64,000 nucleotides of DNA. Origin: Elusimicrobiota bacterium. Its GTDB lineage: Bacteria > Elusimicrobiota > Elusimicrobia > UBA1565 > UBA9628. Position 1 is the stretch's first letter. Each line of letters opens with the position of its first letter. Made by a program: the position numbers and the translations under genes. Below, in pieces: positions 30,781-32,133 of the stretch. Under the pieces are notes generated by a model. It made no database searches, was not told where the DNA came from, and saw only the letters and a list, made by a program, of their open reading frames with translations. Location: contig JACRDP010000010.1 in the NCBI GenBank assembly GCA_016212855.1, forward strand, positions 174,622 through 238,621, written 5' to 3'.

Positions 30781-32133
30781 ATGGCGAAATATAAAGTTCC
30801 GGCGGAAGGCGCGAAGATCGGCTACGCAAACGGCAAGCTCACGGTTCCCGACAACCCCATCATCCCCTACTTCCCCGGCGACGGCACCGGCCTCGATTTG
30901 TGGAAGGCGACCAAGATCGTTCTCGACGGCGCCGTCGATAAAGCCTACAAGGGCAAGCGCAAGATCGCGTGGATGGAAGTGTACGCGGGCCTCACCGCTC
31001 TCAAGAACTACGACAAGGACACCGTCCTTCCCGAAGAGACCGTCGCGGCCTTCAAGGAGTACCGCGTCGGCCTGAAAGGGCCTCTCACCACGCCCGCCGG
31101 CTCCTTCAAGTTCGTCTGCCTCGACTGCGCGGCCGAGCTCATGGACCGCCCGGCGGCCTGCCCGAAGTGCAAGTCCGAGTGGATCACGCCCCGCTTCCGC
31201 TCCGTGAACGTCGGCCTGCGCCAGAAGCTCGACCTGTACGCGTGCGTGCGCCCGGTGCGCTGGTTTAAAGGAGTGCCTTGTCCGGTCAAGAACCCCGAGA
31301 AGCTCGACATCGTGATCTTCCGCGAGAACACCGAGGACATCTACGCGGGCATCGAGTTCCAGCAGGGCACGCCGGAGAACAAGAGGGTTTACGACTTCCT
31401 GACTAATGAGATGAAGGTCAAGATTCCCTTCCCCGACTCGGGCATCGGCATCAAGCCGATCTCGAAGACCGGCTCCCAGCGCCTCATCCGCATGGCGATC
31501 AAATACGCCATCAGCCACAAGAAGCCCTCGGTGACCATGGTCCACAAGGGCAACATCCAGAAGTTCACCGAAGGCGCCTTCCGCGATTGGGGCTACGAGG
31601 TCGCCAAGGCCGAGTTCCGCGACCAGATCGTGACCGAGGCCGAGCTGTGGGACGATCTCAACGGGAAGATGCCGGCGGGCAAGATCCTTCTCAAGGATCG
31701 CATCGCCGACCAGACCTTCCAGCAGCTGCTGCTGCGCCCGGACGAGTACTCGGTGCTCGCCACGCCCAACCTCAACGGCGACTACATCTCCGACGCGGCG
31801 GTCGCCCAGGTGGGCGGCCTCGGCATCGGACCCGGCGCCAACATCGGCGACGGCTGCGCGATCTTCGAAGCCACGCATGGGACCGCTCCGAAATACACTA
31901 ATAAGGATATGGTCAACCCCGGATCGTTGATCTTATCGGGCGTCATGATGCTCGAGCACATGGGCTGGCAGGAAGCGGCCGACCTCATCATCAAGGGCCT
32001 CGAGGCGACCATCGCCGCGAAAACGGTCACCTACGACTTCGAGCGCCAGATGCCGGGCGCGACGAAGATCAAGTGCTCGGAGTTCGGCCAGGCCATCGTC
32101 AAGAACATGGGCGGAACTCCGGTCGCCGCTTAA
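30781..32133 (+). CDS. icd: NADP-dependent isocitrate dehydrogenase (homodimeric Icd type) with a ~30-aa 4-Cys insertion
   Basis: Tracked ORF 30526..32133 trimmed to ATG 30781 (SD AGGAGG upstream). 450 aa, collinear with E. coli Icd from memory ([26 protein letters not shown]) except for the insert at aa 108-138. Confidence 0.92.

Follow-up and report, generated by a model that had tools for sequence, protein, structure and literature searches.

NADP-dependent isocitrate dehydrogenase (ICDH) is among the best-studied metabolic enzymes, and its phosphorylation loop is a classic case of active-site control by phosphorylation. In the Escherichia coli enzyme (3icd/1ai2, TIGR00183) the tip of this loop is just V-G-G-G. 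Published work describes the loop as the target of AceK and as the element that links the binding of NADP with that of isocitrate; it is disordered in the apo form of the S. tokodaii enzyme, varies between subfamilies and, for the subfamily II NADP-IDHs, is listed as one of the subfamily-variable regions. AceK itself has been described as acting only in Gram-negative, chiefly proteobacterial, organisms. Here, we analyse the icd gene of an Elusimicrobiota bacterium, which lies in a stretch of 64,000 nucleotides (positions 174,622 to 238,621 of the forward strand of contig JACRDP010000010.1, assembly GCA_016212855.1), referred to below as the window. In the ICDH encoded by this gene, the tip of the phosphorylation loop is replaced by an insertion of about 30 residues with four cysteines, which is likely a metal-binding mini-domain. 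The features on which the argument rests are the following, with coordinates counted from the first letter of the window:

30770..30775, + strand: ribosome-binding site GGAGGA, read from the sequence, 5 nt 5' of the icd ATG
30781..32133, + strand: icd, NADP-dependent isocitrate dehydrogenase of subfamily I, 450 aa plus stop
30991..31008, + strand: helix aa 71-76 (LTALKN), helical in the structure model and with clade-specific Leu71 and Leu74; putative docking surface of the knuckle
31087..31092, + strand: Thr103-Thr104, aligned with E. coli Thr104/Thr105 and invariant in the family alignment (A1); anchors the phosphorylation loop at its N-terminal end
31102..31194, + strand: insertion aa 108-138, a Cys4 knuckle or zinc-ribbon-like mini-domain in place of E. 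coli G109-G110, an alignment gap against all solved ICDHs
31117..31128, + strand: first knuckle, Cys113-Leu-Asp-Cys116, with C113 and C116 invariant
31159..31170, + strand: second knuckle, Cys127-Pro-Lys-Cys130, with C127 and C130 invariant
31192..31194, + strand: Arg138, where E. coli has Gly110, from the analysis of clade-specific residues
31201..31203, + strand: Ser141, the equivalent of E. coli Ser113 (isocitrate binding, AceK phosphorylation site), placed by alignment and invariant

The protein that hosts the insert is, as far as its sequence tells, a bona fide E. coli-type NADP-ICDH in which all catalytic and NADP-binding residues are present and for which activity is predicted. The reading frame that contains icd spans 30526..32133, with a plausible start at the ATG at 30781. 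Its product scores 644.7 bits against TIGR00183, above the curated equivalog cut-off of 567.3, and 618.6 bits against NF005425 (cut-off 490); it matches Pfam Iso_dh at E 9e-84 and, in a phmmer search of the PDB, E. coli ICDH (1ai2) at E 2e-158 with 56% identity. The isocitrate/Mg2+ and catalytic residues S141, N143, R147, R157, R181, Y188, K256, D310, D334 and D338 are kept (in E. coli S113, N115, R119, R129, R153, Y160, K230, D283, D307 and D311, respectively), and all ten positions are invariant in the family alignment. The determinants of NADP specificity, E. coli K344, Y345, V351, Y391 and R395, are conserved as well, within the motifs PKY...VNP and TVTYDFER. Moreover, the full-length AlphaFold2 (AF2) model (pLDDT 89.8, pTM 0.90) has the fold of the beta-decarboxylating dehydrogenases and matches the E. 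coli and Bacillus subtilis ICDHs in Foldseek at E 1e-53, with a target-normalised TM score of 0.92. The region that corresponds to the AceK recognition segment (ARS) is close in length to that of the E. coli enzyme. What sets the window protein apart from E. coli ICDH is the 30-residue Cys4 knuckle at the loop tip, together with an Arg at the Gly110 position and a Leu at each of the Glu72 and Thr75 positions.

The position of the insert is sharply defined. The HMMER match to every solved ICDH falls into two blocks around it; for the E. coli enzyme, residues 3-108 of the query pair with 4-109, and residues 139-443 pair with 111-416. This leaves about 29 residues without an E. coli counterpart, exactly where the loop TTPVGGGIRS has its G109/G110 tip. 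The translation of 31102..31194 is a 31-residue segment that contains CLDC-X10-CPKC, and Ser141 follows two residues after its end. An earlier reading of this DNA, made from the letters and a list of open reading frames (the sequence-only reading), had held that the icd product is collinear with E. coli Icd except for one insert, with two CxxC pairs 10 residues apart and an end 2 residues before the Ser113 equivalent. The two-block phmmer alignment bears out the collinearity, and translation and alignment agree on the coordinates and the spacing. No counterpart of the insert was found in any solved ICDH among the PDB entries matched by sequence or by Foldseek. The insert has a GC fraction of 0.69, against 0.66 for the window.

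The insert is far from a peculiarity of one genome. A search with the full-length protein gave 120 protein clusters at 67-95% identity, hereafter clade A, from Elusimicrobiota, KSB1 and unclassified or uncultured bacteria; 119 of them span the insert site, and CxxC-X(9-15)-CxxC is present in all 119. The spacer is X10, as in the window protein, in 48 clusters and X14 in 67, with X9, X12 and X15 being rare. In addition, GTDB was scanned, one genome per species, with a flank pattern that is independent of the Cys, [WF][IV]T[PA]RFRS[VL]N. It matched 83 genomes, all of them metagenome-assembled genomes (MAGs) and mostly from Elusimicrobiota, the other carriers being KSB1, Cloacimonadota, Caldithrix, Marinisomatota, Armatimonadota and one genome labelled Verrucomicrobiae; the four Cys are intact in 79 of the 79 inserts that could be read. 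A profile search of a 50%-identity representative library, in which the insert-bearing clades are reduced to very few representatives, brought up sister groups and a divergent carrier (P0125), the latter of which was used as the query for a second set, clade B. These are proteins of 446-448 aa from MAGs of Acidobacteriota/Holophagae, Gemmatimonadota, Myxococcota, Eisenbacteria and Krumholzibacteriia, and the insert is present in 120 of 120 with CxxC-X9-CxxC (consensus GEETHVCL[HY]CAHQQYHxGxC[DE]KCGKDDGV[TC]ERF[RQ]S). Every named insert-bearing member is a MAG or a MAG-derived assembly.

No Cys has been lost in any of the 239 protein clusters and 79 genome loci. By comparison, 48 of the 49 representatives of other ICDH clusters that span the site have a short loop with no Cys pair, the remaining one being a fragmentary insert-bearing protein. 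Across 39 Elusimicrobiota genes the ratio of nonsynonymous to synonymous polymorphism (pN/pS) is 0.19 for the insert and 0.22 for the 168 flanking codons. The insert is under purifying selection as strong as that on its flanks, and its conservation is far beyond chance. The sequence-only reading had asked how widespread the insert might be and had named Cys that vary among carriers as a finding that would count against it. The answer is that large ICDH clades across many uncultured phyla carry the insert, which is not rare, and that the Cys do not vary among the carriers. A profile of the insert alone, searched against protein clusters, gave 22 candidates that share words with it, none of them significant.

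Two further observations concern the carriers. The clade B insert (P0271-P0389) is rich in His near its first knuckle (T-H-V-C-L-H-C-A-H-Q-Q-Y-H), a cluster without equivalent in clade A that could, from its residues, form an additional metal site or a pH-sensitive one. Two MAGs each hold two different insert-bearing icd genes on separate contigs, namely JACQAZ01 (L039 and L041, on contigs of 87 kb and 104 kb) and JAMPYD01 (L005 and L018); these pairs are either true paralogues or the product of mixed bins.

What the insert may look like can be judged from structure prediction. In the full AF2 model it has pLDDT values of 84-94, with strands at 111-113, 119-120 and 135-137. When the isolated 46-mer comprising aa 102-147 was folded as a single sequence, the pLDDT was 80.6, with a core at about 90. 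The top Foldseek matches of this 46-mer in the PDB are mostly Cys4 metal modules, several of them with a root-mean-square deviation of 1.0-1.7 A over 34-37 columns: rubredoxin B, the rubredoxin-like domain of LapB, the C-terminal ribbon of NrdD, the DUF35 ribbon, Trf, rubrerythrin, and the zinc ribbons of MCM and of ribosomal proteins. Their E-values (0.14-1.7) are not significant, as is expected for a domain so small. Among Pfam families, PF23470 (the PF0610 rubredoxin-like zinc beta-ribbon) reaches 23.7 bits (24.5 when only the insert is searched), short of its cut-off of 26; the match covers residues 124-140, which hold the second knuckle only. Because no curated zinc-ribbon family in Pfam exceeds its gathering score, we file the insert as zinc-ribbon-like, with no named Pfam family. 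A profile of the insert matches Pf0610, RPB12/RpoP, S27e and rubredoxin among PDB sequences at E 0.01-0.4. The metal-binding mini-domain proposed by the sequence-only reading is the best reading of these data, given the invariant Cys, the confident AF2 knuckle and the dominance of Cys4 modules among the structural neighbours; the insert is likely such a Cys4 mini-domain, with a predicted metal site. The other roles that the sequence-only reading had raised for it, namely control of substrate access, redox sensitivity and the binding of a partner, are conjectural.

Two family assignments were considered and rejected. The top PDB matches of the insert profile are arrays of C2H2 zinc fingers, which were set aside as non-homologous, since the scores are sums of weak matches in which no single domain is significant. 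The clade A inserts with long spacers (e.g., P0045-P0120) have a GKRPEKCxKCG segment that closely resembles the eukaryotic C2H2 linker-knuckle TGEKPYKCxECGK, and this resemblance produces the spurious multi-domain matches to ZNF568, Aart and CTCF in the PDB profile search; it is probably a convergence on the knuckle motif. Membership of the rubredoxins was rejected because the insert of the window protein has 31 residues, no Gly after either knuckle and no aromatic core, and its matches to rubredoxins have E-values of 0.14 or higher.

How the insert is integrated into the enzyme was addressed by comparing the residues of clades A and B with those of E. coli ICDH and 48 representatives, 49 insert-less sequences in all. 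The four Cys, V112, L114, A117, Arg138, Phe139, Leu71 and Leu74 are common to both clades but rare in the insert-less set. Position 138 is Arg in all insert-bearing sequences, whereas among the insert-less ones it is Arg in 0 of 49 and Gly in 36. Similarly, Leu71 and Leu74, which correspond to Glu72 and Thr75 in E. coli, are Leu in 95-100% of clades A and B versus 2-10% of insert-less ICDHs. As these Leu replace charged or polar residues only where the knuckle is present, helix 71-76, part of the same large domain, is suggested as the surface against which the knuckle packs. The residues presumed to face outwards, on the other hand, are entirely different in the two clades, SEW[IV]TPR in A versus KDDGVTER in B, which argues against a shared docking interface. 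Shared Cys, core hydrophobics and Arg138, together with the distal pair Leu71 and Leu74, are what one would expect to be kept in a scaffold and in the site to which it docks.

We favour, with a probability of roughly 55%, a structural Zn(Cys)4 knuckle that replaces the Gly-rich loop tip, braces the segment from Thr-Thr to Ser141 and walls the entrance of the cleft. The flexible, Gly-rich tip of the phosphorylation loop (V107-G110 in E. coli) has been swapped for a Cys4 segment of about 30 residues. In this model, its four Cys would most probably coordinate a single Zn2+ in a tetrahedral site, the choice of zinc being itself part of the prediction, and the ion would hold together two short beta-hairpins, much as in zinc ribbons and rubredoxin-like modules. 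The mini-domain would fold back onto helix 71-76 through Leu71 and Leu74, and the docked knuckle would stand at the mouth of the active-site cleft as a rigid wall or lid, with Arg138 at the point where the two join and Ser141, in the catalytic site, three residues further on. Its role would be constitutive and structural; in other ICDHs this loop is mobile or disordered, and the knuckle would pre-organise it, with no new catalytic function added.

This arrangement has parallels in unrelated enzymes. The LID of Gram-positive adenylate kinases, with its Zn(Cys)4 site, and the zinc lobe of alcohol dehydrogenases each place a small Cys4 knuckle on a mobile or peripheral loop, where it acts as a structural brace; there too the Cys4 site depends on the lineage, with a short, metal-free loop elsewhere. 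The enzymes and the insert sequences are unrelated to ours, and the likeness is an analogy, with no homology claimed. Closer in shape are the C-terminal domain of LapB (4zlh), NrdD (8p2s), DUF35 (7pxp) and Pf0610 (2gmg), which, like the insert, carry two CxxC knuckles on beta-hairpins. Their matches to the insert lie below significance and give no sign of common descent, and the host enzyme and the context of the insertion are new.

Several points weigh against a purely structural zinc brace. The Foldseek and Pfam matches of the insert each fall below significance; the convergence of the four Cys on one site is inferred from the fold class of the models; and the packing on helix 71-76 through Leu71 and Leu74 is a contact suggested by residue patterns. 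Cys4 knuckles can, moreover, bind Fe or serve as redox switches. Lastly, each clade strongly keeps surface motifs of its own (SEW[IV]TPR for clade A, GEETH and KDDGVTER for clade B), and this conservation could reflect a functional interface and not packing alone.

Of the alternatives to a structural brace, the one that survives best, although we consider it unlikely, is that the knuckle is a reversible switch in the phosphorylation loop that responds to redox state or zinc. The Zn(Cys)4 site would be labile; on exposure to oxidants, or when zinc is scarce, it would lose its metal, the knuckle would unfold, the loop from Thr-Thr to Ser would become disordered and the NADPH-producing activity would thereby be tuned at the loop through which AceK acts in E. 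coli. It is tempting to consider such a mechanism because the insert lies two residues from a Ser that is both regulatory and catalytic, the Cys4 site is invariant, the product of the enzyme, NADPH, is a redox currency, and the host lineages are not those in which AceK is known. However, embedded Cys4 knuckles mostly serve as inert structural elements. The carriers include lineages that are largely anaerobic (Elusimicrobiota, Cloacimonadota) as well as largely aerobic ones (Acidobacteriota, Gemmatimonadota, Myxococcota), so that the insert is not tied to a particular redox lifestyle, and no thioredoxin or other redox gene is conserved near icd in the 75 clade A loci compared.

We regard as rather improbable a second alternative, in which the knuckle is a docking module, that is, a surface for interaction with proteins or nucleic acids. 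The partner could be a lineage-specific regulator (a kinase or phosphatase acting on Ser141) or a tricarboxylic acid (TCA) cycle metabolon, or the surface could serve higher-order oligomerisation. Zinc ribbons often mediate interactions, and the motifs that look exposed are highly conserved within each clade, yet almost none of the putative surface residues is common to both clades, and no gene is consistently adjacent to icd beyond housekeeping synteny (GT2, plsX, fabG). With so few residues shared between the clades (the Cys, the core hydrophobics and Arg138), a scaffold fits the data better than a shared docking surface.

It is highly improbable that the insert holds a rubredoxin-type Fe(Cys)4 centre for electron transfer or for the sensing of O2 or NO. 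Rubredoxins and rubrerythrin are among the best Foldseek matches, and the second knuckle of the window variant is CPxC, as in rubredoxin. Nevertheless, at about 31 residues the insert is without the aromatic core of the roughly 50-residue rubredoxins, the glycines of CxxCG/CPxCG are missing in most members, and ICDH transfers a hydride to NADP, a reaction in which a one-electron carrier is unneeded. Finally, a functionally neutral insertion or a sequencing or assembly artefact, the latter having been named by the sequence-only reading as a possible refutation, has nothing in its favour but the prior that surface loops tolerate insertions and is refuted, as is a chance motif, by the in-frame presence of the insert in more than 80 independent assemblies, the invariance of the Cys across two clades that are about 50% identical, the low pN/pS and a GC content close to the window average.

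A structural knuckle at this place also bears on regulation by AceK. Of the features of AceK-regulated (class A) enzymes, the phosphorylatable Ser is present as Ser141, but a short, accessible loop is not, the 30-residue insertion being placed 2 residues before that Ser. The AceK recognition segment (E. coli 239-275) is within about 1 residue of the E. coli length, with a diverged sequence. Since the bulky knuckle stands two residues from the Ser, access of AceK in the manner known from E. coli is unlikely, and the knuckle probably makes Ser141 inaccessible to an AceK-type kinase.

Other ICDHs are known to deviate from the E. coli enzyme at this loop or elsewhere. In the distant subfamily II NADP-IDHs (e.g., human IDH1), the loop between Thr77 and Ser94 is longer than that of E. 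coli by about 9 residues, and it is helical and metal-free. The cyanobacterial-type ICDHs (NF005610; P0121, 474 aa) belong to subfamily I and have an insertion of their own, but it is placed in the segment that corresponds to the ARS (E. coli 239-275), away from the phosphorylation loop, and it lacks a Cys motif. No published description of an ICDH with an insert like the present one was found in the full-text literature, a coverage outside which most subscription journals lie. This agrees with the sequence-only reading, which was aware of no such Icd, and is suggestive, not proof; the ICDH with a Cys4 insert appears to be an undescribed variant of a known enzyme.

In neighbour-joining (NJ) trees calculated with the insert columns masked, the cyanobacterial-type ICDHs are the nearest insert-less neighbours of clade A, and clade B is the next branch outside the group formed by clade A and them. 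Clades A and B are each supported by 100% of bootstrap replicates, and no insert-less sequence fell inside clade A in the first NJ tree. The two clades are about 50% identical overall, and the bootstrap support for A and B as an exclusive group is 13%. From the shared pattern VCLxC...CxKC...T.RFRS and the shared Leu71, Leu74 and Arg138, we tentatively favour a single origin with one loss over repeated gain or loss.

Two insert-less representatives close to the carriers are long fusions, judged by eye: P0122 (589 aa) is extended at its C-terminus by what resembles a pair of CBS domains, and P0124 (776 aa) has a C-terminal half that resembles malate/lactate dehydrogenase, which makes it a possible fusion of ICDH with malate dehydrogenase.

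Large and mostly uncultured lineages have rebuilt the phosphorylation loop of their ICDH around a conserved four-Cys knuckle, a predicted metal site. Precomputed domain annotation gives PF00180 alone for nearly all insert-bearing members; the insert represents an unannotated structural class of ICDH for which the usual family models make no provision, and its Cys motif is a clean sequence marker for the two clades. It also makes a question about this hotspot testable, namely metal or redox control versus simple bracing. Should the unlikely switch prove true, metal release or disulfide formation would control the flux through ICDH in whole phyla that lack AceK, Elusimicrobiota, Acidobacteriota and Gemmatimonadota among them, and NADPH supply and the TCA branch point would be set at the very hotspot that enterobacteria regulate through phosphorylation of Ser113. 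The insert is a surprise in the regulatory hotspot of a textbook enzyme, although it most probably acts as a structural brace and the answer would settle no long-standing question.

The neighbourhood of icd in the window comprises the following genes:

29258..30763, upstream of icd: flavin amine-oxidase-like protein (PF01593), 501 aa
32282..32990, between icd and the GT2 gene: toxin-antitoxin-like pair, Pfam matches both below their cut-offs
32950..33903, same strand as icd: GT2 glycosyltransferase gene

Across the 75 clade A loci there is no conserved partner gene next to icd, and what is conserved is housekeeping synteny. A GT2 glycosyltransferase gene lies 3' of icd on the same strand in 43 of them, with plsX, fabG and a DUF177-like gene further downstream. 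The order icd-GT2 is also found on a clade B metagenome contig (L082, 5375..6376), where a TMEM260_N/TPR protein follows the GT2 gene, and this synteny spans very distant lineages.

In the window, icd and the GT2 gene are separated by the toxin-antitoxin-like pair, which consists of a Gp49/DUF891-like gene (110 aa) followed by an HI1420-type antidote-like gene (126 aa). Its local GC fraction is 0.56, against 0.62-0.66 on both sides, and the GT2 gene of a related locus (L061) begins some 105 nt beyond icd; the pair looks like a lineage-specific insertion. The amine-oxidase-like gene is kept upstream of icd in 17 related loci, and the N-terminus of its product, over a stretch of 19 residues, resembles a twin-arginine signal.

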